Source: a virus
Virus record (IMG/VR): IMGVR_UViG_3300032046_000014
Span: 20,304 to 84,303 of that record
Direction: 5' to 3' (one strand)
Length of the DNA stretch: 64,000 nucleotides
Part shown: positions 24,944 through 61,702 of the stretch, piece by piece
How the letters are laid out: the number at the start of each line of letters is the position of its first letter
Position numbering within the stretch: position 1 is the first letter of the stretch
Made by a program: the position numbers and the translations under genes
Notes under the pieces: model-generated
What the model was told of the DNA's origin: nothing
Database searches by the model: none
What the model saw: only the letters and a program-made list of their open reading frames with translations

Positions 24944-26158
24944 CTACTCCTTCAAGTCTCTTATTTTGCCTTGGACATTGAAACGAGTGCAGATTATGTC
25001 TCCCATGGTCCTGTACAGGCCCTTGTCTCCGATGAAGTTGATTGCGAATGGGTTGCCGGTGCTGATGCCTGCCTCGAAGTATTGTGTTGGTTTTGCGACT
25101 TTGAAGAGCAAGTAGTCTGTGTCTAGGAAGTAGAGTCTGCTGAGTCCAGCTGGCGTTGCGCTTGGTTGGTCTTGCAGGTTGTTCTTGGTCGGAAGTATGG
25201 GTACTCCGTTGTAGGTTGCAACGATGAATCCGGCTGCGATGCCTTCAATTCCTCTGACTCCGCCGTAGGTTGGGACAACAGTCTTGTATTCGACGAATCT
25301 CTGTTGCGCCTGGAGCAGTCTCTGGACTGCTTTGAGTGTGTCGTATCCGGTTTGGATTATCTTGGGGGTTCCGCCTGCCTTCCAGATCTGTCGGAATATA
25401 TCGTCCAAAAGGTCTAGTGTGAGGCTTCTCAGGCTGCCTTTGGTTGCGTGGTAGCTGATGATGGCGTCTGCCCAGCTGTAGTTTGTGGCGTCTGACCTGT
25501 CTATTGTGGTTCCGTTCACGTACACGTCGTTGCTGACTACGTCTGGTGTGGTGGAGCCATCGGCCATGAAGCAGGTTCCATCTGATTCAACTTTTGCTGA
25601 AACAAGTCTGTCAATTGTTTGGATGTCATTGCCTTCTTGGACTGCTGTAGAGGCAACTCCTTCAGCGTTGAGCATGATGTTGATGTGTTCTGCGTGGTGC
25701 AGGCCCATGTATTCTCTCATCTGGCGCATGACATCGCCGAGTGAGTCGTCGATTCCACCCAAGTATTGTATCATTTCAGCTACGTTGAACGTGTGGCCCA
25801 CGATTTTTGGTTTGCTGTAGAGCTGTTTCCATGTTGGCTTTGTCGTGTCTGGCAATGCAGATCCTTCAGCAAGCCCGCCTGGAGCTACTGTGTATGACCC
25901 AACGGGTGGCACTGGAGCTCTTGCGGTTAGGACACGGAAGCCACTGTGGTCCCATACTGCTTTGGGCAGAAAAGCAAAAGTGTTGGCTTCAAGGTTGAGT
26001 TGTGACCATACTTTAGCGCCGTAGATTGGATTATAGATTCCGCCTTGCGTGGTTAGGATTGGTGCGTCTGCCTTCATTACGTCGGCTACGCCGAGACCGT
26101 AGTAGTATCGTTCCATATCTTCGAGGGTTTTGATTTCAAATATGCTTCTTCCTGACAT
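24944..26158 (-). CDS. Major capsid protein (HK97 fold)
   Basis: YGAKVWSQLN, ATYNGVPI, YRTMGDIIC..FNVQGKIRDLK; follows protease/scaffold. Confidence 0.92.
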   Translation of the reverse strand: MSGRSIFEIKTLEDMERYYYGLGVADVMKADAPILTTQGGIYNPIYGAKVWSQLNLEANTFAFLPKAVWDHSGFRVLTARAPVPPVGSYTVAPGGLAEGSALPDTTKPTWKQLYSKPKIVGHTFNVAEMIQYLGGIDDSLGDVMRQMREYMGLHHAEHINIMLNAEGVASTAVQEGNDIQTIDRLVSAKVESDGTCFMADGSTTPDVVSNDVYVNGTTIDRSDATNYSWADAIISYHATKGSLRSLTLDLLDDIFRQIWKAGGTPKIIQTGYDTLKAVQRLLQAQQRFVEYKTVVPTYGGVRGIEGIAAGFIVATYNGVPILPTKNNLQDQPSATPAGLSRLYFLDTDYLLFKVAKPTQYFEAGISTGNPFAINFIGDKGLYRTMGDIICTRFNVQGKIRDLKE

Positions 26159-26160
26159 GC

Positions 26161-28167
26161 TTATGCACTCTCCCGTAAGCGCGCTGCGCGCTGTTGATCA
26201 CTCATGTCATGGACTTTAGTCCATGGCAGCTCATGCAATGTCTGCAAGGTCAATGGTTGGCCGGGTGCAGCTGCACCTGGAGTTCCGGGCGTTTCCGGTG
26301 CGTTGTCGCCTGTGAATGCAGACTTTCTAACTGTTGCGCTTTGGCTCTTCAGAATATCAGCGGTTTTCTTGGCGATGCCATCAACATCGACGGCAGTGGC
26401 GCTCTTCTGTAAGGTTGCTACTGCTTTCGTTAGTTCAGCAACGGCTTTTCCGATGTCTGCGATTCTTTGAGAATCGCTCTTTTTGCGATGTTCCTCAATG
26501 TATCGTTTCAAGCCTGGAGGCATTTTGCCTTTTGCTTCAAGTCCCTCGAGAGTGGAGATGACTTCTGGGTCGTTGAGCATTTTCTCGTCTTCAGGAGGAT
26601 ATGGTAATTTGGTTTTGTCCTTGCCAGCAGCATCCTTAGCATCCTCGTCTTCTTCGTCCTCTTCCTCTCCTGGTTTCGCAGCAGCCTTTGCGGCGCCTTC
26701 TTTCTCGCCTGGCGGTGGATATTTGCCTGCCTTACAGCCAGCATCTTTGACTGCACCTTCCTTCGCTGCACCCTCTTTCTCGGGTTTCTCTTCATCCTCT
26801 GGTTTTGCAGCTTCTTTCTCTGGCTTTTCCTCTTCACCTGGCTTTACTTCAGCTTTGACTGCTCCCTCTTTTCCTTCAGAGGGCAGCATTGCTTCGAGCT
26901 CCTTGATTTTGGAGCGCATGGTCGCTATGTTCGGTCCCGTTGCAGAAGTTCCTGTTACTCCGCCTGTGTTTGGTCCTGTTCCAGTTCCTACGATTCCTGG
27001 TGTTCCAATTGTTTTTTCTACTTTGTCGGACATTTTTGAGTCCTCAGTGGTTGATGTTCGACCTTCTATGTTTTTAAGTGTTATGTTTGACTGAGCGCTA
27101 GACGGTTCGCCTGACTGTGACGTTTCTGCCTTTATCATGTCAACCCTACCGAGACTATCGCAAGGCACGAGTGCAAGATCAAATAGGGGCCTATAAGCAT
27201 CATGAGGCCCTCCTTCGTCGCCGAAGATGAATTCAAGTTTGTCCCAGAGCTCATTAGGCAATGCTTTGAGGATTCGTGTCTCAATATGTCTCCGCATAGG
27301 ATTGTCAGTATCCATTTTTATGAGCAAGTCAAAGTCGTTGCCTTCTCCTTTCTCCACACTGCTTCCGACTTGGCACACGAATTCTTTGCGGATGATGAGG
27401 CTTTTGCCCATGAGGTTCGGCAGAAAAGACAGCTCCTTCACGAGTTTCTCGCTGTTCTTCAGTTCTGCGCTTTTCTGCAGGAACATTTCTTCCGTGATGA
27501 GCCCATGGTCCAAGTAACTTTTGAGAACCTGGAACCCGCTCTCCGTGTTCTTGCCACGCTTGCAAACCGTAATCTCGTAAAGTTCAAGATCATCAATCTT
27601 CCAGAACGCGCCCGAACGTGCCTGCGCTACAAGAGTTTTTCCGCCGAGAGCCCGTCCGCCAATGCTGAAAGCGTTAAGTTCGCCCTTGTTAGCCATTTCC
27701 CAGACTTTGTCAGCGATTTCTATATCATCGCGTAATTCAGCGACCACATAGAGGCCCTTATCGTCGACGTGGCTCCAGTATTTCTTGCCTTCTGAATCTT
27801 CAACGGTTTCTTTGAGAAGGATTTTGCCGATGGTAATGTTGCTGTGTTCCAGGTTGATGTTAGCGTATTTTTCGCCGGCTGCCTTCATTCTGTCCCATGC
27901 TTTCTGCAAGGCGGGGATGGTGACAAGTTCGTTTTGTTTGTCGATAACTTCGACACTGGCGTAACCGTGGATGATTCTGCGTTTGCCGTCTTTCAGAAGT
28001 AATCCTGCGGCTGGAATATCGAATCGTATGTAGGCGGGGACGGGGGAGTCAACAAGCTCTTTCAGCAGAAGTTCGGTGATGGGATGTTCAAGGACCTGGC
28101 GTGCCATTGGGTCTCCGGCTAATGCGCTTTTCTCAAGCTCAGCCAAAAGTGTTGCAGCATTTGGCAT
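26161..28167 (-). CDS. Prohead protease fused to a nucleotidyltransferase-like domain and a scaffold
   Basis: GYASVEVIDKQNE, H, FSIGG, EITVC; GSSVEKGEGNDFDLLI; E/K-rich C-terminus. Confidence 0.88.
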   Translation of the reverse strand: MPNAATLLAELEKSALAGDPMARQVLEHPITELLLKELVDSPVPAYIRFDIPAAGLLLKDGKRRIIHGYASVEVIDKQNELVTIPALQKAWDRMKAAGEKYANINLEHSNITIGKILLKETVEDSEGKKYWSHVDDKGLYVVAELRDDIEIADKVWEMANKGELNAFSIGGRALGGKTLVAQARSGAFWKIDDLELYEITVCKRGKNTESGFQVLKSYLDHGLITEEMFLQKSAELKNSEKLVKELSFLPNLMGKSLIIRKEFVCQVGSSVEKGEGNDFDLLIKMDTDNPMRRHIETRILKALPNELWDKLEFIFGDEGGPHDAYRPLFDLALVPCDSLGRVDMIKAETSQSGEPSSAQSNITLKNIEGRTSTTEDSKMSDKVEKTIGTPGIVGTGTGPNTGGVTGTSATGPNIATMRSKIKELEAMLPSEGKEGAVKAEVKPGEEEKPEKEAAKPEDEEKPEKEGAAKEGAVKDAGCKAGKYPPPGEKEGAAKAAAKPGEEEDEEDEDAKDAAGKDKTKLPYPPEDEKMLNDPEVISTLEGLEAKGKMPPGLKRYIEEHRKKSDSQRIADIGKAVAELTKAVATLQKSATAVDVDGIAKKTADILKSQSATVRKSAFTGDNAPETPGTPGAAAPGQPLTLQTLHELPWTKVHDMSDQQRAARLRESA

Positions 28168-28267: not shown

Positions 28268-28678
28268 ATGAAAGATGTTATCGGCATATTAGTTTGCAAC
28301 AGCCAGAAAGTGCTTGACCATAAATTGAAGGATGGTAAAAAGAGCGAACATTGCTATTGTTTTTGGAACATGACTCGTTTTCCTCGACGAATTCTCCAGC
28401 GCGTATTTCCTGAATCTATAGGTGCAGTTTCTGAAGCAGCAAAAGCGCCTGGCTTCGGATGGTATGCTGAAGATGATATAGGGGTTCCAGAGGATTTTGA
28501 GGTTCACCTTTACTTCGCAGTGAAGGGGCAAGTGCTGGGCTATTTTGTTTGTAAGGCAATGGGAGAACGGCATAGAACGCAGGAATTAAGATTTCACAGT
28601 GAATCATGGACTCCGATAAAACCAGTAACTATCAAGCCGAGCCAGGGATTCCGATACTTCAAGCATGACTTAGACTAG
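28268..28678 (+). CDS. Hypothetical protein, possibly PUA/ASCH-like
   Basis: LYFAVKGQVLGYF...PSQGFRY. Confidence 0.5.
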   Translation: MKDVIGILVCNSQKVLDHKLKDGKKSEHCYCFWNMTRFPRRILQRVFPESIGAVSEAAKAPGFGWYAEDDIGVPEDFEVHLYFAVKGQVLGYFVCKAMGERHRTQELRFHSESWTPIKPVTIKPSQGFRYFKHDLD

Positions 28679-28707: not shown

Positions 28708-29238
28708 GTGAAAAATACGGAACGTAAACTGAAATATCACTTGTTCCCTGAGCAAATCGTAAACTATGTTTGGCAAGGAAAGCAGTGTTCAGTACAAGGT
28801 ATTCATAAAGCCCTAGATATGGAATATGATAAAGAACACAAAACTTGGCTCAGATTTGAACAAAAACCTGACGACAGAGGATACTTCTGGTGGGAGGAAG
28901 CTGATCTTATTGCGATAGTTAAAGGGCAGAGATCATTCTCATGTGACATTTGCCGAAAAACATTTTCGCCAAAGAGAGTAGGCTTTCTTTCTTCCCAAAG
29001 GATAGTCGAACCTGCTTACTATGTTGGGTTACTCGATATGGAGGGTTGTACTCCTCCACCTTGGGGATACACTACTAAAATCTGCTTAGACTGCGCTTCG
29101 GAAATCTTCAAGGATGCCATAGTTTACAAGTGTGATCCAGATTCGGACTGGTGGTGCGGATGGCATTCAGAAGCACCGAAAATAGATAGACCAAAAATCA
29201 AGCTGATAGACGAATTATTCCCTTTTCTTTGCGGTTAA
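28708..29238 (+). CDS. Cys/Trp-rich hypothetical protein
   Basis: CDIC...CLDC. Confidence 0.55.
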   Translation: MKNTERKLKYHLFPEQIVNYVWQGKQCSVQGIHKALDMEYDKEHKTWLRFEQKPDDRGYFWWEEADLIAIVKGQRSFSCDICRKTFSPKRVGFLSSQRIVEPAYYVGLLDMEGCTPPPWGYTTKICLDCASEIFKDAIVYKCDPDSDWWCGWHSEAPKIDRPKIKLIDELFPFLCG

Positions 29239-29289: not shown

Positions 29290-29577
29290 TCAATTCCGCA
29301 GAGATAGGAGCTGCTGGCGCACCGCCTTATTCCATCTGAGCTGCATAACGGCTCTGATGCTGATTTTCTGCATCTTAGAATTGCCACAGATAGGACATTT
29401 GTTTCCCCGACCAGTTTTATGGAAAAGAAATGGTATGGCATGACCCTTTTTTGAACTGTCCTCACAAGTACAGCATTTATAGACTGACAGTTTGTCTTGC
29501 ATTCGCCGACCTAGAAACTCCGTGGTTTTCGGCGTTTCCCTCTCCATTCCTAAAAACTTCTTCAAACTCATCTTCAT
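29290..29577 (-). CDS. Zinc-ribbon protein
   Basis: CCTC...CPICG; coupled to the polyprotein stop. Confidence 0.55.
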   Translation of the reverse strand: MKMSLKKFLGMERETPKTTEFLGRRMQDKLSVYKCCTCEDSSKKGHAIPFLFHKTGRGNKCPICGNSKMQKISIRAVMQLRWNKAVRQQLLSLRN

Positions 29578-32500
29578 CCCTCTATCGGCTTCTTTTCTTC
29601 TCCTGGGCTTTGGACCGGGGCTTCAGTCTCTCCCGCAAGTCTATAGTGGCCATCATCTTCATGTTTAATTGGGTCCATGGGTTGCTGATCGGATGGTCGA
29701 AAGGCAAGCCATCTAGGGCTGCCAGACGCAAGCTTAAGGAGCCGGAAGATCCATCTGCCCCGGAGGAGTTTTCCATAGAAGAAGTATTCGTGGAGATTGT
29801 TTCTTTGGACCCCGTACTTGAACGTGCCTTCTTCCAAAATCTCATAGAAACCACACCTGTTTGTTTCAGCTGCAGATCCTTCTCCGCCGAGAAGCACTGG
29901 TTTACGTAGGCCCTGGACGTCTAGCCAGCCTCTAGGAAACTTTTTGCTGCTCTGTTTAGGAATGGCCGGTTTGGCCGTGGTCATGCCCTTAATGCTGCCG
30001 CTGAAGAATCTCTGAGTTTTCTCCCAAGGATATGTGAGGAAAGTCCAGCCGATCATGCTTTTCGCGTCGCCTGTGTCCTGGCGAGTTTCCCAATGTTCAC
30101 GAAAACCGCCCACGCCCTTCCTTATTTCTTCAGGTTCAGAGTCTCCGAATTCGATGTCTGGCTCTTCAGACTTTGCTAAGTCAGGTTTCAATTGTTCCCA
30201 GACGTAACGTTCAGCCGAGCTTGGGTCTCTTGGTGCAGAAATGGCGTCTCCGGGCGGATTGCCGCCTGCGCTGCTAGGCGGAGAACCTGTGATCTTGATA
30301 TCGCCGGCAGTGTCTGGTTCTATTCTTTTCTCCTTGTTGATCTTGGGTCCATATGGAAAATGATGATGGACGATGAATGTGAAAGCTTTTCCATGCAGCC
30401 ATTCGGCCCCCTTGTAAAACTGGGCGGGATATGGATTGCCTTCCTTGGTCTCGGGCAGCTGAGGTTCAGCAGCTTTTTTCAGTCCTCCAGGCAATACGAA
30501 ACCATCATGTGCAGCGAGCACTGGCTTGTCATATTCTGCTTCCAACGCAATCTTTGACAAAGCTTCCGGCATATCCTCTTGCTTCACGCCCAAGTGTCCA
30601 ACATGGGTAATTATCACTTGGGGCACACCGTTTTTCTTCGCCTGTTTCAGACTATTCAAGATGCTTTGATGCCCATAATCTTCACCATCTTGCTCTCGAA
30701 CGATGTCTCGAGTGAGGCTTGCGCCGTCTATGATCCAGGTTTCCACACCGCCAAGCCACTTGTCACTTATTTCTAGGCAGTCGGGACTATAGAGTACGAT
30801 GCCGTTGATGCGGATGGCGAACGTTTGAACCTTCAAGCTGTGTTTAACTGGGAGCCAGCGGACCTTCACGTTTCCGATTCTGATGGCGTTATAGCTGCTG
30901 TAGAAGTGAAGTTCTCGATGACTCAGTTTCTCAGCGTATTCAGGACGCTGCTCACGTATGTCACGCCATATAGAACGGTGCATGTATATGGGCACGTCTT
31001 CAGACAGAAATTCCAGGCCGTCTATATGGTCCGGATGTGCATGAGTGACGCAGACTGCATCAAGGCGTGTTTGAACCTTCTCCGCGAGCTCCTTGCTTCC
31101 GCAGTCAAGCAGAACGTTCGTACCGCTGTTTTCGAATATGGCGCTTGCATTCAACCTTTTATCGGTGCGACACTGCTCATCATCGCAGTCTTTGCGCGGA
31201 AAAGTTTTCTCTCCGCTTGTACCGAGGAACCGGAGATTCCAGGTTGCAAGCTCAACCGCGTCGGCTGCTGCTCCCCGGCTCGGAGTCCATGTTACAGGAC
31301 CTTGCCGAGTTGATTCTTCGGGCGGCATCTGTTTTTCCGTCGGGTTAACGGGCGGCTTTTCAGACGAAAGAGGCTTTCCCGTTTTCGGGTCTGCTCTATG
31401 GCCAGTCCACGGCGGCCATAACTGTTTCTGCAGAGTGTCTATGCGTTCTTTCAGTTTTTCAGGGTCAGTTGCTGAGGCTCTCACGGTGGCGACCCAACCG
31501 TCTGCTTCTTCATCGACAGAGATTTTGTAGTTGCTGATGCCGATGCTTTCAAACAGGTTTTCTACTTGAGCTTTCCATTGTTGGGCTTTCGCGTATCCTT
31601 CGGGCCCTTTGAAGAAAACATGAGATGTCAATGATGTCTCGTCAGCGCGCATATACTGTAACGGTGTGATTTCATGGAAAGTATTGTCTGCAGGGTCGGG
31701 AACTCTTTCGCCGCCGCCCATTCCAGGAACGCCTATGACCCCACCGGGAGCATAAGTAAATCCGCCATTTGCTTTCGTCAGCTCTTCCTTTTCTAATGGT
31801 GTGTTATGGTTCATTCCGCGTTTTTCAATTTCTCTGGCGATGGCATCGTGAAGAGCTTTGACCGTTGGCTTATCATGCACTAGAGGTTTGCCGCTTTGCA
31901 GTGTGCTCCACCAAGCATGTGTGATTCTGTGATCATCGAGAAGGACGCGGTCATCAATCTTGGCCGGATCATACGTGTCTACGTCCTTGATTTTTGTTAT
32001 GCCAGCTGAACCTTCTGGACCCGTAGAATCTGCGCTGGGCTCGGGCTTCGTTGTCGTAGTCATGATGCCCTGGTCAAGTCTGCCCGGTTCAAACTGCTGT
32101 GAACCGCTGTCAGGATCAGATGCAAACTGTTTCTGAACTTTCTCATCATGCTGTTGAGAATGTTCTTTCCAGTGGACAGGAACTTCACCATCTGTGACTT
32201 TGTAGACTTTGCAAATGTCCTTCTCATGCGTGTAAGCAGCATCGTATTCGGGATCTTCTTTTTCCCAGGGACCGCCGGGCTCTTGTTTCCATTCTTCGAA
32301 GTCTTTGTCGCAGAACCAAGCGCGGCCCATTCCTTCAGCATAGAGTACGTCGACTGTCGGAGGGTCTTCGCAGCGCATGCATTTTTGGCGATTAGCCCTT
32401 TTTTCTATGTAGTCAGAGGCTTTCTTGAACTGGGTGATTTCTTCAGGTGTAGGAAGCGATCGTCCTGGACTAATCGGCGCCAGCATATGCAGATATCCTG

Positions 32501-34643
32501 CTACGTCATCGGCTTTCTGAAGGGTTTGACTGGCCAATTCTTCAGCTGTATCCAAACCGTCTGGCACATTCTTTTCAGGCTGGTACATGGGAACAGCATT
32601 CTGGTATGTGTAGTCGTAACTGTTGTTTTTGACGATTTCCAAGCAGCGAACTCGGAGGATATCCCCCTCAGCTGCTTCTACGCCTGAGACGTGCGTGTGG
32701 CCCATGATAAGCCATTTCTTGCCTTTCATTTCTGCAATACGGTTTGCCGGCAGAGTCTTCGCCTGCGCGTCATTGATGGGGCCTATTGCGCCGAGATAGC
32801 GCCAGCCTTCCTGTTTGCGTTCTTTCTTGACGACGAGGACGTCGATTTCTTTCTGCTTCTTCCATTTTGCCCATCCGAAATTGATGATTCGCTTAGTATT
32901 CCATTGGCTTTGTGCGTCGAAGAGCATGGCGCCTTCGCTGCCCTTCAGGTTGCCCATGCGTTCAGCTGCTTCTGCGGTTTTACTTGGCGGTACAACGGTA
33001 AACTGTTCAGGTTTTATGATGGGCAGATGCACGGTTCCTTTGAATTCTTTTCTGAGCAGTTTCAGTCTGTCTATCATGGGCATGTCCGCGAGGCTTTTTC
33101 CGTCTAACTCGATGATGTCGAAGATCCATATTCGGAGGTTGCGGCCTTCCTCTACCGGGGCCTCCCCATTCAAGTATCCGATTGCTAATGTCCGGTGCAT
33201 CGGCTGACTGTCCGAATACATCATCGCTTGTCCATGGAGGATGAATGATTCGTGGGGCCAATTTTTCAACTCCTCAATAATATGGGGAACACGACTTGTC
33301 TTGTCAAGTCCCCTGCCACTCCAAACTTTTTCTTTGCTCAGCATCATGTCCATGCCGTCAAACTTCTGCTGAACAAGAACATTGGCAAACCTTCTGAGAA
33401 GGGATGGAAGCTTCTTGACGTCATAGTACCGGGTGGCAGGCTTGTTTGCTTTCGGCAATGATGCCTTCGCTATAAGCTGGCCGTCCTCGACAATGAGGTC
33501 GCTTTTGCCGATTTGCTCTGGAGAATGAACGGTTCTGACGGCTTCCTGGTAAGTGGTGGGGTGCATTTCGACTGCTGTTTCTCCGCCGGGCCCTGCAGAT
33601 TCGGGAGTTTGTTTTTCTTCGCTGAACATTTCAGCAGCAGCATGGGCTACTCCGACAACATCTCTCCAGTTGTCGCAGAAGTTCACTCCTAAATCGTCAA
33701 TGTACATGTCGGCAACGGGCTTGCCTAGTATGAGCTCATCATAAGAAATTCCGTTCTTGTCGAGCCATCCTGCAGTGAGCTCATAGTACCGGGGATCTCG
33801 AGCGGTGTAAATGACGATGTTTGCCAGGTCATTAAGGTCTTTCATGCTTTCCTGCGCGAGAGTTTTCGGTTTTGCTTGTGTATAGCATTCTGGAATCGGC
33901 AGGTTAGTGTCGGTGTCGGCTATTGTGCCATCCAGGTCGACGGCGATTGTGAGGTCTTGAGTGTCGCTTTTCCATTCAGGCGTCGGGAAAAAGACTTGTA
34001 CTCCTCGCTGGTACTTGTAGGATTGTGGAGTTTTGAAGCGGTTGAGAATCTTGAGAGTGTAGGCGTAGAGCATGTTGGCGTCGGGCCACCATCGGGTTCG
34101 CTCTTTGTCGCTGATCTTGTGCTGGGGCTGGAGCTTCTTGAACTGCTCGAGCGTAATGGGCTCGATGTCCGTGAATTTGAGAACTCCATAGACATATTCA
34201 TCGTCGGCCCAGTAGAGCGGTTTGTTGAGCATGCCGCTGTAATTGCGGCATTTTACAGTGAGACTTTTTTCGCCGTTCCAGATCATACGTGCATGGGGCG
34301 GGGCAAGATAAACGCTTTTGGCGTTTATTTGTGAAACTGTGCTCTTGAGACTTTGAACAGTGCTTTTGCCCACGGTCACGCCGTCTAGGTCATCGTAAGT
34401 TTTATGGATGAAACCGCGTCTGTCCATTTCTGCTTGGAGCAACCAGTGATAATCAACCAGATCCTCTATCGACCAGCCTGGCACCGCGTCTGGCACATCT
34501 TTTTTTCTGCACCAGAGCGCGTGACATAAGGCATGGTCAAACAGCAACTGTTGATCAACAAGTTCTCCAGGAACCGACATGGCAGTTAGGCTCTCCGGCT
34601 TAAATCCTCCTTGTTTACCCGCTGTTTCGTAGGGTCTACCCAT
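29574..34643 (-). CDS. Multidomain nucleic-acid repair polyprotein (ASCH; HAD phosphatase; ATP-dependent ligase; Zn finger; MBL hydrolase; LigD-like phosphoesterase)
   Basis: PHARMIWNGEK; IAVDLDGT/YTAR/KP.ADMYIDD; QKFDG/WIFDII/EGAM/WAKWK; THAHPDHIDG/GHQS/THVGH; FIVHHH..HWETR..EEGTF..FYGKLLRGRW. Confidence 0.85.
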   Translation of the reverse strand: MGRPYETAGKQGGFKPESLTAMSVPGELVDQQLLFDHALCHALWCRKKDVPDAVPGWSIEDLVDYHWLLQAEMDRRGFIHKTYDDLDGVTVGKSTVQSLKSTVSQINAKSVYLAPPHARMIWNGEKSLTVKCRNYSGMLNKPLYWADDEYVYGVLKFTDIEPITLEQFKKLQPQHKISDKERTRWWPDANMLYAYTLKILNRFKTPQSYKYQRGVQVFFPTPEWKSDTQDLTIAVDLDGTIADTDTNLPIPECYTQAKPKTLAQESMKDLNDLANIVIYTARDPRYYELTAGWLDKNGISYDELILGKPVADMYIDDLGVNFCDNWRDVVGVAHAAAEMFSEEKQTPESAGPGGETAVEMHPTTYQEAVRTVHSPEQIGKSDLIVEDGQLIAKASLPKANKPATRYYDVKKLPSLLRRFANVLVQQKFDGMDMMLSKEKVWSGRGLDKTSRVPHIIEELKNWPHESFILHGQAMMYSDSQPMHRTLAIGYLNGEAPVEEGRNLRIWIFDIIELDGKSLADMPMIDRLKLLRKEFKGTVHLPIIKPEQFTVVPPSKTAEAAERMGNLKGSEGAMLFDAQSQWNTKRIINFGWAKWKKQKEIDVLVVKKERKQEGWRYLGAIGPINDAQAKTLPANRIAEMKGKKWLIMGHTHVSGVEAAEGDILRVRCLEIVKNNSYDYTYQNAVPMYQPEKNVPDGLDTAEELASQTLQKADDVAGYLHMLAPISPGRSLPTPEEITQFKKASDYIEKRANRQKCMRCEDPPTVDVLYAEGMGRAWFCDKDFEEWKQEPGGPWEKEDPEYDAAYTHEKDICKVYKVTDGEVPVHWKEHSQQHDEKVQKQFASDPDSGSQQFEPGRLDQGIMTTTTKPEPSADSTGPEGSAGITKIKDVDTYDPAKIDDRVLLDDHRITHAWWSTLQSGKPLVHDKPTVKALHDAIAREIEKRGMNHNTPLEKEELTKANGGFTYAPGGVIGVPGMGGGERVPDPADNTFHEITPLQYMRADETSLTSHVFFKGPEGYAKAQQWKAQVENLFESIGISNYKISVDEEADGWVATVRASATDPEKLKERIDTLQKQLWPPWTGHRADPKTGKPLSSEKPPVNPTEKQMPPEESTRQGPVTWTPSRGAAADAVELATWNLRFLGTSGEKTFPRKDCDDEQCRTDKRLNASAIFENSGTNVLLDCGSKELAEKVQTRLDAVCVTHAHPDHIDGLEFLSEDVPIYMHRSIWRDIREQRPEYAEKLSHRELHFYSSYNAIRIGNVKVRWLPVKHSLKVQTFAIRINGIVLYSPDCLEISDKWLGGVETWIIDGASLTRDIVREQDGEDYGHQSILNSLKQAKKNGVPQVIITHVGHLGVKQEDMPEALSKIALEAEYDKPVLAAHDGFVLPGGLKKAAEPQLPETKEGNPYPAQFYKGAEWLHGKAFTFIVHHHFPYGPKINKEKRIEPDTAGDIKITGSPPSSAGGNPPGDAISAPRDPSSAERYVWEQLKPDLAKSEEPDIEFGDSEPEEIRKGVGGFREHWETRQDTGDAKSMIGWTFLTYPWEKTQRFFSGSIKGMTTAKPAIPKQSSKKFPRGWLDVQGLRKPVLLGGEGSAAETNRCGFYEILEEGTFKYGVQRNNLHEYFFYGKLLRGRWIFRLLKLASGSPRWLAFRPSDQQPMDPIKHEDDGHYRLAGETEAPVQSPGEEKKPIEG

Positions 34644-36568
34644 CTTTTCTTCTTCGGGATTGAAGCGGTCGGGTTCAGGATGCCCGGTGTTGCAGTGGTG
34701 ACGGGAGAGTCTTCTTTAGCAAGGATCGGTTCCGTTGTTGTTTCTTGCAGTTTTGGGTTAACGAAGCTTGTTTTCTGGGGGCCATGATACCATTGTTCTT
34801 TATCTTTCCAGAAGGCGCCGCAGAAATCTTCAGGGTCTTTCACCCAGCCTTTAACCCGGACCTTGCAGGCTTCCATGAAAGGATCTATAGAGGAACTTGA
34901 CTTCGAAAGCAATATTAGATCATCTATCATGGATTTGTTGTAGTTTTCAGCTTGTTGCCCCGCAGGTTTCGGCGCGAAGCGTCCGGTTCTTTCTCGAATT
35001 TCGCCGGTGGCTTCAGATTCGATGCCAATTTTCTCGGGCGGTGATGGCGTACTCTTTTTACCTTGTTCTGTAAGTTCTCCTTCTCCAGAAACTTCCAGTT
35101 CCCCTCTTTCGTTGAGGCGAACATCAAAACCTGCTTTCAGCCAAGTGAAGGCAGTGTTTGCTTTGATTTGGCCAATCTCGGTGAGCCGCAGTTCATCTCG
35201 AAGTTCCAGCGTGTTAAACCTGAATTTCCAGTCTGTAATGTTGAAGGCTGGAAACACACGGTTGTTCATTATGTCCTCGCGGTTCTTGTGATGCTCGCGT
35301 ATGGCACGGTCTTGGACTGTGACCTGCATCATAGGTGTGGTGCCTGCTTTGCCTGATTCTATGTCGCCTGTGAAGACTGGCTGGGCCGAGTACACGGCGC
35401 CGCAGGCTGCTCTCCAGAACTTGTAGAATTCGATGCTTTGCATGCGTTTGAAGTCTTCCATGACTCGAGTGACTTTGATGGGGTCTTTGCTAGCTATCAT
35501 CATAGTGCGGACTTTCTTGCTTGTCCGGAATCTGCGGAGCACGGGGTCGTAGACTCGTTTGCGCAAGGCTTCCTGCTCAAACTGATCCATGATCTCGTTG
35601 ACTTCTTCCTGTTCGTGGCCTGGAAAATTGACGATGCTGCCCAGTTTTCCTTCAGTATAGAGTTCTATGTTGAAGTCATCCATTGCCTGTATGCTGAGCA
35701 GGATTTTCCAGAGGCAGATGATTCTGCTTTCACCATACAAATTCGGTACCCAGCGGTCACTGCTGCCGTGGATAACTTCGTCTTTGGTGAATCTTGCTTT
35801 GACAGCTCCGCCCACACGCTGCACGTATGCTGTTTTCTGCAATGGTTTGCCGCAGACTAGACAGGTAACTGTTGGAGGCGCATAGACAAAATCTGGTTTC
35901 CAGCATTCTGGACAGAAAAGCTGGTTAGGATCTCCGATGTGGCCTTTATCATCGGCAACAACACGGAAGTATCGCGGGTCTTCCACGTTAAGTTCAGCCG
36001 GGATCTTGAGTAGTTCACTGGCTTTCTCGGGTTCGGGGTTGATCACATACTTGTAGCTGATAGTCATGAAATAGTTGTCCAAGCTCAGGTCATACATCAG
36101 CGTGCTCTTCAAGAGTTCATAGAAGGTGTTTTCCTCATTTGGTTTCGTCAGCAGTTCCAGGGCTCTTTGCTCCTGTTCCGTGTCAGGAGGCACGAGTGAT
36201 TCTTTGTCCTTTGGACATTTGTTGTCAGGCGGCGGATCCTTGAATTCCTTCTTGCATTTTGGACATTTGCCGATGAAAGCAGGTTCTAAACGCCAGCCGG
36301 GACTCATGGTTTCACGGATGATTGTGCCGAAAACATTCTTCAAAACCCAGTGAGTGCGCGCGATCAGCATGAGCTCTTCGAAGTTGTAGATAGGCTCACG
36401 TATCTTGTAGCTAGGTTCCCATATGTATTCCGGAATTACTGTACGGTCAGCTTTGCGGATTTCCTTTTCAAACTCGGTCAACGGCGCAGTTGCCTTGACC
36501 ATTACTTCGGCTTTTTCAACAATGTTTTCCCATGGCATTATTTTTTGCTCCTTTTGATGTTGCTGCAT
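34586..36568 (-). CDS. Portal protein with zinc-binding insertions
   Basis: Position after terminase; KPNEENTFYELL, DEVIH, YGESRI; CPKC/CPKD and CPEC/CLVC insertions. Confidence 0.85.
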   Translation of the reverse strand: MQQHQKEQKIMPWENIVEKAEVMVKATAPLTEFEKEIRKADRTVIPEYIWEPSYKIREPIYNFEELMLIARTHWVLKNVFGTIIRETMSPGWRLEPAFIGKCPKCKKEFKDPPPDNKCPKDKESLVPPDTEQEQRALELLTKPNEENTFYELLKSTLMYDLSLDNYFMTISYKYVINPEPEKASELLKIPAELNVEDPRYFRVVADDKGHIGDPNQLFCPECWKPDFVYAPPTVTCLVCGKPLQKTAYVQRVGGAVKARFTKDEVIHGSSDRWVPNLYGESRIICLWKILLSIQAMDDFNIELYTEGKLGSIVNFPGHEQEEVNEIMDQFEQEALRKRVYDPVLRRFRTSKKVRTMMIASKDPIKVTRVMEDFKRMQSIEFYKFWRAACGAVYSAQPVFTGDIESGKAGTTPMMQVTVQDRAIREHHKNREDIMNNRVFPAFNITDWKFRFNTLELRDELRLTEIGQIKANTAFTWLKAGFDVRLNERGELEVSGEGELTEQGKKSTPSPPEKIGIESEATGEIRERTGRFAPKPAGQQAENYNKSMIDDLILLSKSSSSIDPFMEACKVRVKGWVKDPEDFCGAFWKDKEQWYHGPQKTSFVNPKLQETTTEPILAKEDSPVTTATPGILNPTASIPKKKRWVDPTKQRVNKEDLSRRA

Positions 36569-37973: not shown

Positions 37974-38239
37974 CGTTCCAGACTCCTGACAGCCAATTTC
38001 ACAGACAGCCTGTTTTTGTCAAACATGATTTTATATATGATTCCGTTGCTCGAATTCCAGTTTGCGTCAATAATCTTGCCTATTTTCAGGCCCGCATCAT
38101 CAAGAATGGGCTTTCCAGTCATGGACAAGGCGAATTCTTCAAGTTCTTTCTGCATCATCTTATGCGCAATCAAAAGTCTACACTCCTGATAGCCAATTTC
38201 ACAGGCGGCTTCAATATGCTTCGCAGCATGAGCCCACAA
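37970..38239 (-). CDS. Small hypothetical protein, possibly PRC-barrel-like (true start probably near 38160)
   Basis: MTGKPILDDAGLKIGKI. Confidence 0.4.
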   Translation of the reverse strand: MWAHAAKHIEAACEIGYQECRLLIAHKMMQKELEEFALSMTGKPILDDAGLKIGKIIDANWNSSNGIIYKIMFDKNRLSVKLAVRSLER

Positions 38240-39666
38240 CTCTTGGGATAGTCATCATGCTTATCGTAGCCTTCCGGCGCGGCCAAATGCAGCATGTTGC
38301 CCTTCCAGAGCATGTTCAGGTCTAGGAATTCTCTGATAAACCTGTCTCGTTGGCGACGCTGGCGTCTGGCAATTGCTTCATTGATACTGGGAAAATCTAT
38401 GAGTTTCTTTCTGAAGCAGTTAAGCATGAGTTTGCTTGTGATGTCTTCTTCGCGTATCTCGTTTGTTCGGATGCCCTGGATGTCCAGGCGAGCTCCGCCG
38501 CCGGGCAGATTACGCCATTCTTTGCGGAAGTAATCCAGCACAGGATCTCCGACGCCGGCACTGTCTATGCAGATCTGCCGCGCGCCCAGTTCCAGGCATC
38601 GTTGAGCTACATGCTGGCTTTGCACTGGATAGTCTGTGCCTTCAAACTCCATCCATTCCAGAATATGGGCCATGTCACCTTCACCATAGCCGAAGGTGAT
38701 GACGCTGCGGTCGCTTTGTTTTGCCACATCCCAGCCAGCATAAATGTTGAACACTGGCTTTCCATCAACCATCGGTACTACGAGAGGCTGTTTCCTGCTC
38801 ATGTCCTGCAACGTTTCCAGTGTGGTGAATTTGTCAATGCCTAAAGCCCATTGCAGCTCGTACTGAGTTCGGAACCCGATGCTTTCCGGACCCAGTCTTT
38901 CACGTTCATTCTCCACGAATAGAGCGTATCGTTTGTTCCATCGGCTTGCTTCGTGGCAGTCGACACGTGTAATATTGCTGCGGTCTTCCCGTTTGGTACA
39001 GGCATCATAGAAGTAGCTGTTGATAACCACGTTTTTCGGTGTGCCATCCAAGATGCGCGCTCCACCTACAGCAGCGCTCATGGGGAATACTTCCTGCGTC
39101 ATCTTCAACGGGTCCACATCTTCGCTTTGTTCGATGACAATGAGGTTCAATGTTTCGCTGGTTACATTGCTTTTTTCTCCTATGCTTAGGCAGCGGATGC
39201 GGGCATCAACGTTTTCAGCAATGTTCCGTATAACGAAAAGTTCGCTATATACTGAATCTCCGGTTATTAGTCTAAGGCCAAGCATATCGAGTAACAGTTT
39301 GATCCGCATATATCTGCGTCTGAGACGTTCCTTTACAACCAGGATTGACTGGCTTGCAGCAGGAGCGAACACGCCAATGCGCACGTGCTGCTTCAAAATT
39401 TTCGTGAAGAAGATGCTGAGCGTGAGGAAGCTTATGCATACCGCCTCTGTTTTGCCACTTTGCCGGCACTGCAGTATGAAGAGTTCTTCTCCTTTCGCGT
39501 TCAAAGTCACACGCATGATGTCATCGCTAACCCTCGTCTCATAAGGGTAAAGTCCTTCTGGCAAGTCTTCTTTGAGAGCGGCGACGATGATCTTTCGTAA
39601 TGCACGACAAATATCCAAGGAACTATGACCGTTATTACTGGTTAGAAGTTCCTGGAGTTGATTCAT
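38170..39666 (-). CDS. terL: Terminase large subunit
   Basis: CRQSGKT Walker A, GWDVAKQSD, IDSAGVG, HDD. Confidence 0.93.
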   Translation of the reverse strand: MNQLQELLTSNNGHSSLDICRALRKIIVAALKEDLPEGLYPYETRVSDDIMRVTLNAKGEELFILQCRQSGKTEAVCISFLTLSIFFTKILKQHVRIGVFAPAASQSILVVKERLRRRYMRIKLLLDMLGLRLITGDSVYSELFVIRNIAENVDARIRCLSIGEKSNVTSETLNLIVIEQSEDVDPLKMTQEVFPMSAAVGGARILDGTPKNVVINSYFYDACTKREDRSNITRVDCHEASRWNKRYALFVENERERLGPESIGFRTQYELQWALGIDKFTTLETLQDMSRKQPLVVPMVDGKPVFNIYAGWDVAKQSDRSVITFGYGEGDMAHILEWMEFEGTDYPVQSQHVAQRCLELGARQICIDSAGVGDPVLDYFRKEWRNLPGGGARLDIQGIRTNEIREEDITSKLMLNCFRKKLIDFPSINEAIARRQRRQRDRFIREFLDLNMLWKGNMLHLAAPEGYDKHDDYPKSCGLMLRSILKPPVKLAIRSVDF

Positions 39667-41180: not shown

Positions 41181-42071
41181 ATGTTGAATGTTATGAGTGT
41201 TTGGCTAACCGTATCGCCGGAGGATCCGTACCTACAAACAATCGCTGTAGAATTCACTAATTATTGTAATCTGCAGTGTGACCCTTGTTATGGACAAAAT
41301 CCGAGACTCTATAAGGCCAGATCTAAAGGTTACATGACACTTGAAAATTTCCGCGTTTTGCTGGAACAATTAAAGAGGCTGCCAAGACTGAGAATTCTGA
41401 ACCTCAGCTACAATGGCGAATCATTGCTGCATCCGCAGTTTGAACTGATGGCTCAAGAGGCAAGGGCAGTTCTGCCTAACATGATGATAGGGATTGTTAC
41501 AAACGCAACTTTGATTACACGGTCGAAAGCTTTTGCCATTCTTAAGAACTGCAGCAGTATAATTGTCAGCATGCACCATGGCCCTAAGCTTGATGAAGCC
41601 TTAGACGGCCTCGAGACCCTTTCAACTATCAATCAGCAGGCCAAGAACCCGCGCAGCCTATTCGTTAACGTGATGGCTGACGAGTTCAAACATCATGAAA
41701 TCATAGCGTTGGCTGATCGAGTGAAGGAAAGGAAGATTGTTGTGCAGTTTAGGCGAGGGTGGCCGATGACGGAAGACTTGAAAAGGCCAATGCAACATCC
41801 GCAAACTACTACCACATGGACAGATGTTCCCGCGCCTTTTCACTCAGACAAATTCTGTCTGGCGCCCTTCTATTACACGGCGGTCCTCTGGAACGGCGAC
41901 ACGTTGCCGTGCTGTCACATATTAAACGGCGGCGACTTCAGTTTAGGCAACGTCTTCAACACCAGCCTTCTTGACGTTTGGAACGGCCAAGCCTATGGAA
42001 GACTACGGAACGAAAACTACGAGTCATCATGTCCTTGCGTTGCATGTGAAGTTCGTGAGCTTCCGGTTTAG
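41181..42071 (+). CDS. Radical SAM enzyme with SPASM/twitch domain
   Basis: CNLQCDPC, GESLLHP, TNAT, C...GDTLPCC...LGNV...WNG...C..C. Confidence 0.92.
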   Translation: MLNVMSVWLTVSPEDPYLQTIAVEFTNYCNLQCDPCYGQNPRLYKARSKGYMTLENFRVLLEQLKRLPRLRILNLSYNGESLLHPQFELMAQEARAVLPNMMIGIVTNATLITRSKAFAILKNCSSIIVSMHHGPKLDEALDGLETLSTINQQAKNPRSLFVNVMADEFKHHEIIALADRVKERKIVVQFRRGWPMTEDLKRPMQHPQTTTTWTDVPAPFHSDKFCLAPFYYTAVLWNGDTLPCCHILNGGDFSLGNVFNTSLLDVWNGQAYGRLRNENYESSCPCVACEVRELPV

Positions 42072-43188: not shown

Positions 43189-43262
43189 GGCGGTCTGTGC
43201 GGGAGTTGAACCCGCCTCAGTCGAGTGACAGTCGACCATCCGCACCGGCGGACTTACAAACC
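43188..43262 (-). tRNA. tRNA-Asp(GTC), CCA encoded
   Basis: Cloverleaf; GTCGA-CTGTCAC-TCGAC anticodon arm. Confidence 0.9.
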
Positions 43263-43268
43263 TTGATG

Positions 43269-43339
43269 TGCACCCGCCGGGATTTGAACCCGGCCGTCAG
43301 CGTGGAAAGCTGAGATCCTAGCCACTGGACCACGAGTGC
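43269..43339 (-). tRNA. tRNA-Gly(TCC)
   Basis: Cloverleaf; TCAGC-TTTCCAC-GCTGA; GGTTCAAATCC. Confidence 0.9.
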
Positions 43340-43351
43340 GATGATCCTGTT

Positions 43352-43513
43352 TGGTGCAGAGGACCGGATTTGAACCGGCGCGTCCGCCTTGCGGAAAGAG
43401 GTTTCTCACAGGCTGAACAGTCGTTCCTAACCGTCCTTAGCTTCGAGCTTACGACTTGAGCTTCGAGCTGGGTCTTAAGCCTCTCGCTTTCAGCCATGCT
43501 TGGCTACCCCTGC
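43352..43513 (-). tRNA. tRNA-Leu(TAA) with a 71-nt 37/38 intron (43403-43473), CCA encoded
   Basis: Long variable arm TCCGC/GCGGA; central BHB helix CTTA/TGAG. Confidence 0.88.
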
Positions 43514-43541
43514 ATTAACGGATGGTACTGATAGATCGTAC

Positions 43542-43617
43542 TGGTGGAAGCTGTGGGATTCGAACCCACGGCCTACTGCTTGCAAAGCAGCTGCTCATTC
43601 CGCTGAGCTAAGCCCCC
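43542..43617 (-). tRNA. tRNA-Ala(TGC), CCA encoded
   Basis: Cloverleaf with G3:U70. Confidence 0.92.
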
Positions 43618-48881: not shown

Positions 48882-48954
48882 GGACCGTAAGTTGAGCAGC
48901 CTCCACGACGGCGCGGTCTGGAACAGGATTATTCACCTGTACTAAGTGCTCAGC
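48882..48954 (+). ncRNA. HDV-like self-cleaving ribozyme 1; predicted cut 5' of G48882
   Basis: P1 GGACCGT/GCGGTCT with G1.U; P2 GTTGAGCA/TGCTCAGC; P3 GCC/GGC; L3 TCCACGAC; P1.1 CC/GG; P4 ACAGG/CCTGT; J4/2 ACTAAG (catalytic C48942). Confidence 0.92.
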
Positions 48955-48987
48955 AGATTACCTGCAGGTGCAGGAGGTGAAACAAAG

Positions 48988-49821
48988 ATGATGAAAAAGC
49001 AAGTTGCGATACTTCTGGTTGCTGCATTGGCAACTGTACTTGTAGCTTCAGCCATAGTCAGCGCATGTGATCCTCCCAGATGTCCACCGGGTCCTCAAGG
49101 ACCAATTGGACCAGCAGGTCCTAAAGGTGACAAAGGAGATGTAGGAGCAACTGGCCCAACAGGACCTCAAGGTGCAACAGGAGCAACAGGACCAGAAGGT
49201 GCAATAGGACCAATGGGTTCTCAAGGACCCAGAGGAATAAGAGGACCGCAAGGTGAAACAGGATCTCAAGGGCTAACAGGACAGGCTGGAATCAACGGAA
49301 CCGATGGAGTTAACGGAACTGACGGAGTCAACGGAACAGATGGAACTGACGGAAAAGACGGTTCCACTTGGTATAATGGAAACGGCACAGCAACTTCAGA
49401 CTTAGGCAAGGATGGAGACTACTACCTACAAACAACAAACGGTGACATCCTCTACAAGATAGAAGGAACTTGGACTTTCCTGATGAACATCAAAGGCTCC
49501 GATGGAAGCAATGGACTCAACGGACTCGATGGACTCAACGGACAAGACGGCATCGATGGGAAAGACGGAATTGATGGTCTCAATGGAACAGATGGAGAGG
49601 ATGGTAAAGATGGACTTGACGGTCTTAACGGACAAGATGGACTCGATGGAGAAGATGGATTCAACGGACAAGACGGCAATGATGGAACAGACGGAATGTC
49701 TGCACAATCTTCAAGCGGATGCGATTGCAAACTATTGATTCTAATGCTCTTCCTGACCATGATAGCAATCTGGATAATCGCAATCAAAATGCTAAGGTGC
49801 AAGTGCAAGCAGCCCAACTAA
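48988..49821 (+). CDS. Collagen-like surface protein (signal peptide, Gly-X-Y repeats, C-terminal TM anchor)
   Basis: GGAGGTGA RBS; two Gly-X-Y blocks; several NGT sequons. Confidence 0.88.
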   Translation: MMKKQVAILLVAALATVLVASAIVSACDPPRCPPGPQGPIGPAGPKGDKGDVGATGPTGPQGATGATGPEGAIGPMGSQGPRGIRGPQGETGSQGLTGQAGINGTDGVNGTDGVNGTDGTDGKDGSTWYNGNGTATSDLGKDGDYYLQTTNGDILYKIEGTWTFLMNIKGSDGSNGLNGLDGLNGQDGIDGKDGIDGLNGTDGEDGKDGLDGLNGQDGLDGEDGFNGQDGNDGTDGMSAQSSSGCDCKLLILMLFLTMIAIWIIAIKMLRCKCKQPN

Positions 49822-60730: not shown

Positions 60731-61702
60731 ATGACAAGCAAAGAGAACGTGATGCTCGGCATCGACGGTTCACTCACGGATCTGCACTCTCATCCTGACA
60801 TGTACTGGCAAGCTAAGTGGGACGGGTATCGCGGCAAACTCGTATTCCAAAATGGCCACGTCAGCGTACTCAATAGAAACGGCAGCGATGAATGGACGCC
60901 GCGACTGCCAGACGTCGTTGAAGGATTGCAGCAGTTCGCAACTGCTACAGGTGCAGCAAGATTCACCCTCGACGCAGAACTCGTCGTTTTCCAAGAGGGC
61001 CACAGCAGCCTCAGCGCCATAGCGAGCAGATGCAAAACTCAGAACCTACAGATGATACAGCTGAAACTACGCAGACTCTACCCAGTGGACGTCATGCTCT
61101 TCGACATCATCGAATGGGACGACCAGCGCCTCGAGAGCGACCCGCTCATGAACAGGCACAACCTCCTAACATCACTCTACAGCACATACAGCAAAGCAGT
61201 TGCAGGCCAGCCTAAACATGTTCAGCTTACCCCGAACTATCTTGATGTGGACACGGCGTGGAACGAGTGGGTTGTCAAGCGGCATGAAGAAGGACTCATG
61301 GCCAAAGATCCTATGAGTCCATACGTGTATGAGCGGAGCTCCAGCTGGCTTAAGGTCAAGATACGGGACAGCGGCACCTTTCATGTGGTCGGCTACACGG
61401 CGGGCGATGGGAACCGCAGCGACACGTTCGGCGCTTTGATTCTGGCTGACGATGTAGGTGTATGCAGAGGACGATGCGGCGGAGGCTTCAGCTGGGCAGC
61501 ACAGGACAGCACCGCACGCCAGATCCTCCAAGCGTTACGGCAGGCGCCGGTAATCAACCCGCCATTCTCAGAAGCCGAGGTTGGATTGCCCTACACTGCT
61601 GTCGACACGAAGATGCAGGTGAAGGTAGCTTTCCTGAAAACGTTCAATGGGTCCAGCAAGCTTCGAAGCCCACAACTAATAGACTGGTGGATACCACAAT
61701 GA
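60731..61702 (+). CDS. lig: Minimal ATP-dependent DNA ligase (LigD/LigC-like)
   Basis: KWDGYR, LDAELV, FDII, EGLMAK, WLKVK, FGALIL. Confidence 0.92.
   Translation: MTSKENVMLGIDGSLTDLHSHPDMYWQAKWDGYRGKLVFQNGHVSVLNRNGSDEWTPRLPDVVEGLQQFATATGAARFTLDAELVVFQEGHSSLSAIASRCKTQNLQMIQLKLRRLYPVDVMLFDIIEWDDQRLESDPLMNRHNLLTSLYSTYSKAVAGQPKHVQLTPNYLDVDTAWNEWVVKRHEEGLMAKDPMSPYVYERSSSWLKVKIRDSGTFHVVGYTAGDGNRSDTFGALILADDVGVCRGRCGGGFSWAAQDSTARQILQALRQAPVINPPFSEAEVGLPYTAVDTKMQVKVAFLKTFNGSSKLRSPQLIDWWIPQ

Follow-up and report, generated by a model that had tools for sequence, protein, structure and literature searches.

The material analysed here is a 64,000-nt stretch of DNA (the window) from the IMG/VR virus record IMGVR_UViG_3300032046_000014, which is 84 kb long and 78% complete. 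On its minus strand the window holds a head module in which a single giant open reading frame (ORF) lies between the genes for the portal protein and the HK97-type prohead protease; its product is most likely a phage-type polyvalent head-module protein, predicted from its domain matches to carry a LigD-like kit for DNA ends (Table 1). An earlier note on this DNA, made from the letters alone, had described a 1689-aa protein in this place, and the 1689-codon frame is indeed uninterrupted at the positions it gave. The length of the product is probably shorter: the first ATG creates a 58-nt overlap with the portal gene, and the codon for Met22 (34580) lies 5 nt past the portal stop with a GGAG ahead of it. 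As homologues begin at the Met22 position in our alignment and residues 1–20 are disordered in an AlphaFold2 (AF2) model, the true start is probably Met22, for a product of 1668 residues. The closest homologues (P0002–P0005) are 49–93% identical to the giant protein. An assembly chimera, which the note had named as a possible artefact, is ruled out as the origin of the ORF because the full architecture was found again in independent contigs at 98%, 93%, 62–65%, and 49% identity (at least four metagenome contigs). In a comparison that rests on one IMG/VR locus and two metagenome loci, the order portal, giant ORF, protease, and major capsid protein (MCP) is also retained in a relative, L003, that is 65% identical.

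The two parts that relate the giant protein to LigD are a ligase domain and a C-terminal 3'-phosphoesterase (PE) domain. The ligase domain, in addition to its Pfam match, matched PDB 3gde (1.4e-5), its top PDB matches being archaeal DNA ligases and its top NCBIfam matches ligases of non-homologous end joining (NHEJ), and it retains the motif I nucleophile Lys427 (KFDG) and motif V (AKWKK). The residues that follow it (611–705) are probably the ligase OB domain, in which the predicted motif VI, located by eye, reads QPEK where RxDK is expected. Pfam and NCBIfam scans of the giant protein found no primase-polymerase domain. Because a separate, canonical ATP-dependent DNA ligase is encoded on the plus strand of the window, the ligase of the giant protein is not the replicative one. 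A C5 cytosine DNA methylase gene (62256–63209, plus strand) adjoins that stand-alone ligase gene.

The PE domain had no Pfam match and no PDB match when searched as a single sequence, an AF2 model of the C-terminal 295 residues from a five-sequence alignment reached a predicted local distance difference test score (pLDDT) of 36, and an Atlas match (0.83) was treated as a lead only. The assignment comes from its family. A profile of 16 family members searched against the PDB retrieved LigD PE chains only (3n9b and 2lj6, 2e-6; 3p4h, 1.6e-4; 3p43, 3.7e-4), 9 of 58 PE relatives matched Pfam LigD_N (PF13298; best E-value 6e-12), and FVxQxHWRG...SxHxDLRxE, the consensus of the family, corresponds to the LigD PE signature, with its metal-binding His, His-x-Asp, and Arg at least 90% conserved across the family. 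In the giant protein the corresponding segments read FIVHHHF and REHWETRQD, separated by an insert of ~80 residues (1431–1510) that interrupts the domain, for a His/His/Glu/Arg set; the alignment places His1426–1428, His1517, Glu1519, and Arg1521 opposite LigD His42, His48, Asp50, and Arg52.

A phmmer search of the PE domain against 1.84 billion representative sequences identified 203 relatives (clusters at 50% identity), mostly multidomain proteins of 600–2100 residues. A Pfam census of 58 PE relatives found an ATP-dependent ligase in 24, an XkdF-type prohead protease in 18, a metallo-beta-lactamase (MBL) domain in seven, uracil-DNA glycosylase (UDG) in four, Dam methylase in three, MuF in two, and Mu protease I and DUF2213 in one each, and head-morphogenesis domains (prohead proteases, MuF) are fused in 22 of the 58. 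Local hidden Markov models (HMMs) built from the giant protein picked out, among 150 relatives, the ligase in 65, a short helical unit in ~35, the ASCH domain in 20, and the MBL domain in 17, with the HAD domain limited to close kin of the giant protein.

This family also links the giant protein to its neighbour, the prohead protease gene, which is a three-part fusion of an S78 protease (approximately residues 60–220), a domain of ~110 residues (235–350; 27118–27465) with a GS...DxD segment, and a low-complexity, scaffold-like tail rich in Lys, Glu, and Pro. We call the middle domain nucleotidyltransferase (NTase)-like from its GS...DxD motif; Pfam and PDB sequence searches of this segment matched no named family. 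Of the 150 PE polyproteins, 57 have a domain homologous to it (in direct phmmer comparisons, 1e-14 to P0142 and 1.9e-8 to P0006), and the protease domain of the fusion matches the C-terminal protease of the PE polyproteins. Because both parts have these counterparts, the usual NTase-ligase-PE-protease polyprotein is, judging from the matches, split into two neighbouring genes here, its ligase-PE half being enlarged with the MBL, HAD, and ASCH domains, two helical units, and a zinc ribbon. The two-gene split is conserved in L003, with whose counterpart the protease fusion aligns end to end.

The MBL domain carries the HxHxDH motif as HAHPDH (1201–1206) and matched the PhnP (1.4e-10) and RNase Z (1.2e-7) models, both under the equivalog cut-offs, as well as PDB 6kns (5.5e-6). 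The HAD-superfamily phosphatase domain also matched the Pnkp-type PHROGs 415 and 505 (~3e-5) and PDB 1xpj (8e-4); Pfam NIF scored 15.8 bits on it, below the cut-off of 21.8, and by eye its motifs are DLDGT (236–240), T280, K308, and DD316–317. A tblastn search of the giant protein against a collection of isolated phages returned single-domain matches only (MBL, HAD) and no comparable protein.

The N-terminal 230 residues were modelled with AF2 from a 24-sequence alignment (mean pLDDT 74.7; 78–95 over the two domains). The ASCH (PUA-like) beta-barrel had no Pfam sequence match (PF04266). Foldseek matched its model to 2dp9 (2e-7) and ZmASCH (2e-5), the top 14 matches all being ASCH-type proteins; VIA gave Z scores of 11.2 to ZmASCH (5guq) and 10.0 to YqfB (9kyf), above the unrelated rows, and the Atlas lead to ASCH was 0.92. 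The domain list of the earlier note (ASCH, HAD, ligase, MBL, and LigD-type PE) is in this way borne out by profile or structure matches.

These accessory domains also admit a different use, as cargo that would destroy host signalling or modified nucleotides and not repair DNA, with the MBL acting like the anti-Pycsar enzyme Apyc1, the HAD and PE domains as nucleotide phosphatases, and the ASCH domain as a modified-base reader or amidohydrolase. Polyvalent proteins are mostly devoted to counter-defence (Iyer, Burroughs, Anand, de Souza, Aravind 2017, PMC5512222), there is a weak match of the MBL to Apyc1 (7u2r, E-value 0.25), ASCH relatives include the ac4C amidohydrolase YqfB, and the nearest phage homologues of the HAD domain adjoin dUTPase genes. 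Against this, the top MBL matches are PhnP, RNase Z, and YycJ-like hydrolases and not Apyc1, and the recurring set of ligase, PE, and NTase-like domains (with UDG in some relatives) makes a coherent outfit for nucleic-acid repair, so that we regard counter-defence as an improbable function for this protein.

The note had also pointed to two short helical units resembling pyrimidine-dimer glycosylase motifs. Their presence as two paralogous copies holds (hhalign probability 92%, E-value 5e-7), while a glycosylase activity does not follow from their sequences. The unit is ~60 residues long and often N-terminal in the relatives that carry it. Pfam Pyr_excise (PF03013) scored 22.9 bits, just below its cut-off of 23, TIGR02328 matched at unit 1 with an E-value of 0.0025, and the same Pfam profile scored 21 bits on the relative P0155 (4e-4; profile positions 12–77 of 81). 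The model of unit 1 (residues 19–92) superposes on T4 endonuclease V (1enj, residues 3–94) with a Z score of 5.7 and 21% identity, equal to the score of generic helical hairpins. The catalytic Glu23 of endonuclease V aligns with Leu39 in unit 1 and Ile905 in unit 2, and, as each unit lies inside the chain or starts ~20 residues into it, neither offers a free N-terminal amine nucleophile. We therefore predict that they are probably DNA-binding modules rather than glycosylases. The Zn finger of the note likewise stands in part: the Cys module is conserved, and five further relatives have it by local HMM, with the fourth position occupied by Asp785 here and by His in two relatives. At the C-terminus, a short tail (GETEAPVQSPGEEKKP) that diverges little among the homologues could be a capsid-targeting peptide.

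Table 1. Coordinates of the giant ORF, its predicted domains, and other features of the window
Feature	Position	Residues	Strand	Basis or remark
Large terminase (TerL)	38170-39666		minus	upstream member of head module
Portal protein	34586-36568		minus	PHROGs 18178/2662/12; directly upstream of giant ORF
Giant multidomain ORF	29574-34643		minus	unbroken, 1689 codons from first ATG
Helical unit 1, endonuclease V/Pyr_excise-like two-helix module	34374-34583	21-90	minus	AF2 pLDDT 79-89
ASCH (PUA-like) beta-barrel	34008-34319	109-212	minus	AF2 pLDDT 78-95
HAD-superfamily phosphatase	33636-33959	229-336	minus	PHROG 1238, 9e-18
ATP-dependent ligase nucleotidyltransferase	32814-33446	400-610	minus	PF01068, 41.8 bits vs cut-off 26.2, 1.2e-10
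Post-ligase region	32529-32813	611-705	minus	local HMM matches same post-ligase position in 18 further relatives
Zinc-ribbon-like module	32244-32411	745-800	minus	C757-x2-C760...C782-x2-D785, alignment
Helical unit 2, paralogue of unit 1	31788-31994	884-952	minus	hhalign
Small domain, poorly conserved	31419-31691	985-1075	minus	DUF5661 in its place in P0005
MBL hydrolase	30480-31247	1133-1388	minus	PF12706, 66.7 bits vs cut-off 27, 2.8e-18
Divergent LigD-type PE domain	29616-30410	1412-1676	minus	family-profile match
C-terminal tail RLAGETEAPVQSPGEEKKPIEG	29577-29639		minus	shared by all five homologues at 50-65% overall identity
Zinc-ribbon ORF, 95 aa	29290-29577		minus	CxxC...CxxC motifs; overlaps giant-ORF stop (ATGA)
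Two ORFs	28268-28678 and 28708-29238		plus	opposite orientation within head operon
HK97-type S78 prohead protease/scaffold fusion, 668 aa	26161-28167		minus	downstream of giant ORF
Major capsid protein (MCP)	24944-26158		minus	downstream of prohead protease
tRNA cluster	43191-43617		minus	Gly(UCC), Ala(UGC), Rfam tRNA match 43191-43262, tRNA-Leu(UAA)
Stand-alone ATP-dependent DNA ligase, canonical	60731-61702		plus	PF01068 1.5e-24; NHEJ-ligase model 1.8e-39

Around the giant ORF, the small zinc-ribbon ORF is also kept downstream of the homologue in L003 (3e-30). The two plus-strand ORFs that follow it in the window are absent from L003, and HVTV-1 has an HNH endonuclease at the equivalent place. 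Elsewhere, the non-structural part of the window encodes on its plus strand a radical SAM/SPASM protein, a collagen-repeat protein, and an AAA ATPase (41181–42071, 48946–49821, and 51008–52675, respectively).

The only isolate relatives of the MCP are the haloarchaeal siphoviruses HCTV-1, HVTV-1, and HCTV-5 (31% identity) and a Methanofastidiosa virus, and the tRNA-Leu(UAA) gene (~43352–43513) has a 71-nt intron in its anticodon loop; based on these two observations an archaeal host is likely for this virus. The CCA end is encoded in two genes of the tRNA cluster, the nearest isolates by TerL are bacterial phages at ~25% identity, and Pfam scans of other large genes in the window turned up no host marker.

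The reading we prefer, to which we would give a probability of about 55%, is that the giant protein is loaded into the capsid, processed by the protease, and serves as a kit to heal and seal DNA ends. Packaging is suggested by the conserved slot between portal and protease, by the fusion of family members to head proteases and MuF, by the presence of the NTase-like partner on the protease/scaffold protein, and by the placement of Lys-Ser/Ala dipeptides in linkers. These dipeptides are not in overall excess in the giant protein (19 observed versus 16.9 expected), yet 11 of the 19 fall in linkers, which make up 26% of the protein, as against 26 of the 116 other lysines (Fisher p 0.0025), with linker boundaries that the analyst drew from the domain matches and not blind. 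Two linkers that are disordered in the AF2 model (91–108 and 213–230) contain K93-S, K100-S, and K225-S, and the Lys-Ser/Ala pairs at 93, 225, 393, 710, and 1390 are retained by homologues that differ in the rest of their linkers. For comparison, the HK97 protease cuts its capsid protein between Lys103 and Ser104. On this reading the protein would be made late, together with the head genes, and built into the procapsid along with the protease/NTase/scaffold protein, after which the HK97-type protease would probably cut the Lys-Ser/Ala linker sites and free single enzymes that could enter the host with the DNA. There, going by the biochemistry of their families, the PE-like, HAD, and PhnP/RNase Z-like MBL domains would clear 3' ends blocked, for instance, by a 3'-phosphate, a 2',3'-cyclic phosphate, or terminal ribonucleotides, nucleic acid would be bound by the ASCH domain and the pair of endonuclease-V-like helical units, and the ligase domain would join 5'-phosphate and 3'-OH ends, such that nicks, breaks, or termini of the incoming genome might be mended before viral genes are expressed. 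The suggestion in the note of a toolkit that makes damaged ends ligatable stands as a reading of the predicted enzyme set.

Several points weigh against this reading, the non-blind choice of linker boundaries being one. Neither Pfam scans nor a comparison with the MuF-like protein of HVTV-1 detected a MuF, portal-binding, or protease domain in the giant protein itself, and no match to Ku was found in the 84-kb record at its 78% completeness. The active sites raise further difficulties. In a table of motifs from the giant protein's ligase domain, 57 other family ligase domains, and the virus's stand-alone ligase, motif I of the giant protein reads KFDGMD and so lacks the Arg of KxDGxR, motif III is LHGQA with HGQ instead of DGE, and motif IV is SEGAMLF with its Lys gone. 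In Chlorella virus ligase and LigD, the residues replaced here in motifs I (Arg), III (Asp/Glu), and IV (Lys) contact the ribose and phosphate of AMP. In the PE domain Glu1519 replaces LigD Asp50, and the LigD HPLEY segment is FPRGW, with Phe1569 and Trp1573 for the phosphate-contacting His84 and Tyr88; a family-conserved Lys (1567/1568) adjoins this segment. The ligase domain appears to have been re-tooled or impaired and may be inactive or use other chemistry. Both active sites are, as aligned, non-canonical; their catalytic roles are predicted and cannot be assumed.

The absence of a head-binding or protease domain from the giant protein fits an unpackaged train of late intracellular enzymes, which would mend nicks and blocked ends in replicated viral DNA before or during packaging, its site among the head genes reflecting timing only. 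The gene is also separate from that of the protease, and a protein of ~185 kDa would use up capsid space. It is harder to reconcile with such a train that 22 of 58 PE relatives are covalently fused to head-morphogenesis domains, that the NTase-like partner sits on the protease/scaffold protein, that the portal-adjacent slot is conserved, and that Lys-Ser/Ala pairs are biased to linkers; we consider this explanation unlikely, if one to be taken seriously.

The altered active sites raise the further idea that the cargo has partly decayed, so that catalysis would be left to the MBL and HAD domains alone, the ligase and PE folds surviving to bind DNA or as structural proteins inside the head, as might be expected when four canonical contact residues of the ligase and two catalytic residues of the PE domain are replaced. 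The changes in motifs I, III, and IV occur all together only in the five close homologues, among which they are invariant down to 49% identity, whereas these motifs are largely canonical in the other 52 aligned family ligases and the virus's stand-alone ligase. Also retained are the Lys nucleophile and motif V of the ligase and, as aligned, the His/His/acid/Arg set of the PE domain. In addition, the relative P0002 (2020 residues, 93% identical) has two inteins with LAGLIDADG/Hint signatures, one immediately before ligase motif V (at approximately residue 591 of the giant protein) and one within helical unit 2, between DDHRI and HAWW (approximately residue 906). Inteins usually sit at functional sites. 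Given the invariant substitutions and the intein at motif V, the ligase does not look simply decayed, and we hold partial decay of the cargo to be highly improbable. A second relative, P0126, has a gap of ~390 residues in helical unit 2 and may hold an intein there too.

As to the substrate of such a kit, we favour DNA-end healing and sealing over RNA repair, a judgement drawn from the enzyme complement. An RNA kit, which the note had offered as an alternative, would rejoin tRNA or mRNA after cleavage by anticodon nucleases of the host or ribozymes of the virus. RNA binding is frequent among ASCH domains, one of which, ZmASCH, is an RNase; PhnP-like MBLs are known as a family to open cyclic phosphates, and the LigD PE to work on 3' ribonucleotides. 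But the giant protein has no P-loop/Walker A motif, and neither polynucleotide kinase nor RtcB was found in the 84-kb record (78% complete). As there is no 5' kinase for 5'-OH ends, those left by ribozymes or anticodon nucleases would not be sealable by an ATP-dependent ligase, and the ligase itself is of the DNA-ligase/LigD type. When the whole window was scanned with Rfam at gathering thresholds, only tRNAs and no ribozyme came up. RNA repair thus has little to recommend it and is the least probable of the explanations considered here. DNA lesions and 3'-blocked ends as the targets of the kit are suggested by the UDG domains in relatives and by the endonuclease-V-like units.

If the kit is packaged and active, these virions would bring their own DNA repair or end-joining machinery, a new class of ejected protein beside RNA polymerases, anti-restriction proteins, and ADP-ribosyltransferases. 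This would bear on how viral genomes withstand damage outside the cell and attack by host nucleases early in infection, within its first minutes, on the circularisation of linear genomes in hosts that lack NHEJ (as, to our knowledge, most archaea do), and on capsid proteases as devices for cargo release. The endonuclease-V-like helical unit, an uncharacterised module, is frequent among these proteins and intein-bearing in two relatives (in P0126 only possibly), and the HGQ-for-DGE ligase variant would be a natural experiment on cofactor recognition. More tentatively, and with rather less conviction than we attach to the role of the giant protein itself, we speculate that tailed viruses of archaea and bacteria commonly carry a capsid-internal, protease-processed repair kit of ligase, LigD-like PE, and small NTase (here joined by the MBL, HAD, ASCH, and endonuclease-V-like binders), which would act at entry, independently of the host, to repair the nicks, blocked ends, or base-excision intermediates that had built up in the packaged genome or to join its termini, and that the ribose contacts of the ligase have been re-tooled in this clade, possibly for a cofactor other than ATP.

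Among known systems, polyvalent proteins encoded with portal and terminase genes have been predicted to be packaged and injected (PMC5512222). The giant protein resembles them in being very large, in combining many unrelated effector domains, and in its place among the portal and terminase head genes; it differs in having no MuF or portal fusion. In the survey of these proteins, ATP-dependent ligase, MBL, HAD, ASCH, and LigD-PE domains do not feature among the cargo listed, 2H domains are stated never to occur with ligases, and few polyvalent proteins are reported from archaea, those above 1000 residues being almost all bacterial (PMC5512222). Our full-text literature search retrieved no paper joining LigD, phosphoesterase, phage, and capsid, nor a description of this cargo or of the PE-domain family.

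Bacterial LigD likewise joins an ATP-dependent ligase to a PE-fold domain in a single chain; going by the alignment, the giant protein keeps the His/His/acid/Arg set of the PE domain, and its ligase scores best against NHEJ and archaeal DNA ligase models. Unlike LigD, it has no primase-polymerase, the small NTase-like domain being on the neighbouring protease gene, and its setting is a viral head module in which no Ku was found. Its PE domain is also without equivalents of His84 and Tyr88 and has the 80-residue insert, and its ligase departs from the canonical motifs I, III, and IV. A further likeness is to the polyproteins of uncultured viruses in which a protease is fused to NTase, ligase, and PE (P0006 and others), all four domains being homologous. 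Here they are distributed over two genes, one running from ligase to PE and the other protease-NTase-scaffold, and the giant protein adds the MBL, HAD, and ASCH domains, the two helical units, and the zinc ribbon.

The haloarchaeal virus HVTV-1 (Druskaviridae), whose MCP is 31% identical to that of the window, has in the same slot, between a MuF-like head-assembly gene and the prohead protease gene, the 1313-residue 'zeta toxin' gp115 (KC117377, 6539–10480), which by local domain HMMs has no domain in common with the giant protein; its MuF-like gp114 likewise has nothing detectable in common with it. Compared with T4 endonuclease V, the helical units cover most of the 81-position Pyr_excise profile, at ~60 residues instead of 138 and with neither the catalytic Glu nor the N-terminal amine. 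The general idea of such cargo is thus known from polyvalent proteins; what is particular to this locus is the split of the kit over two genes, its extra domains, the altered ligase site, and a probable archaeal host.

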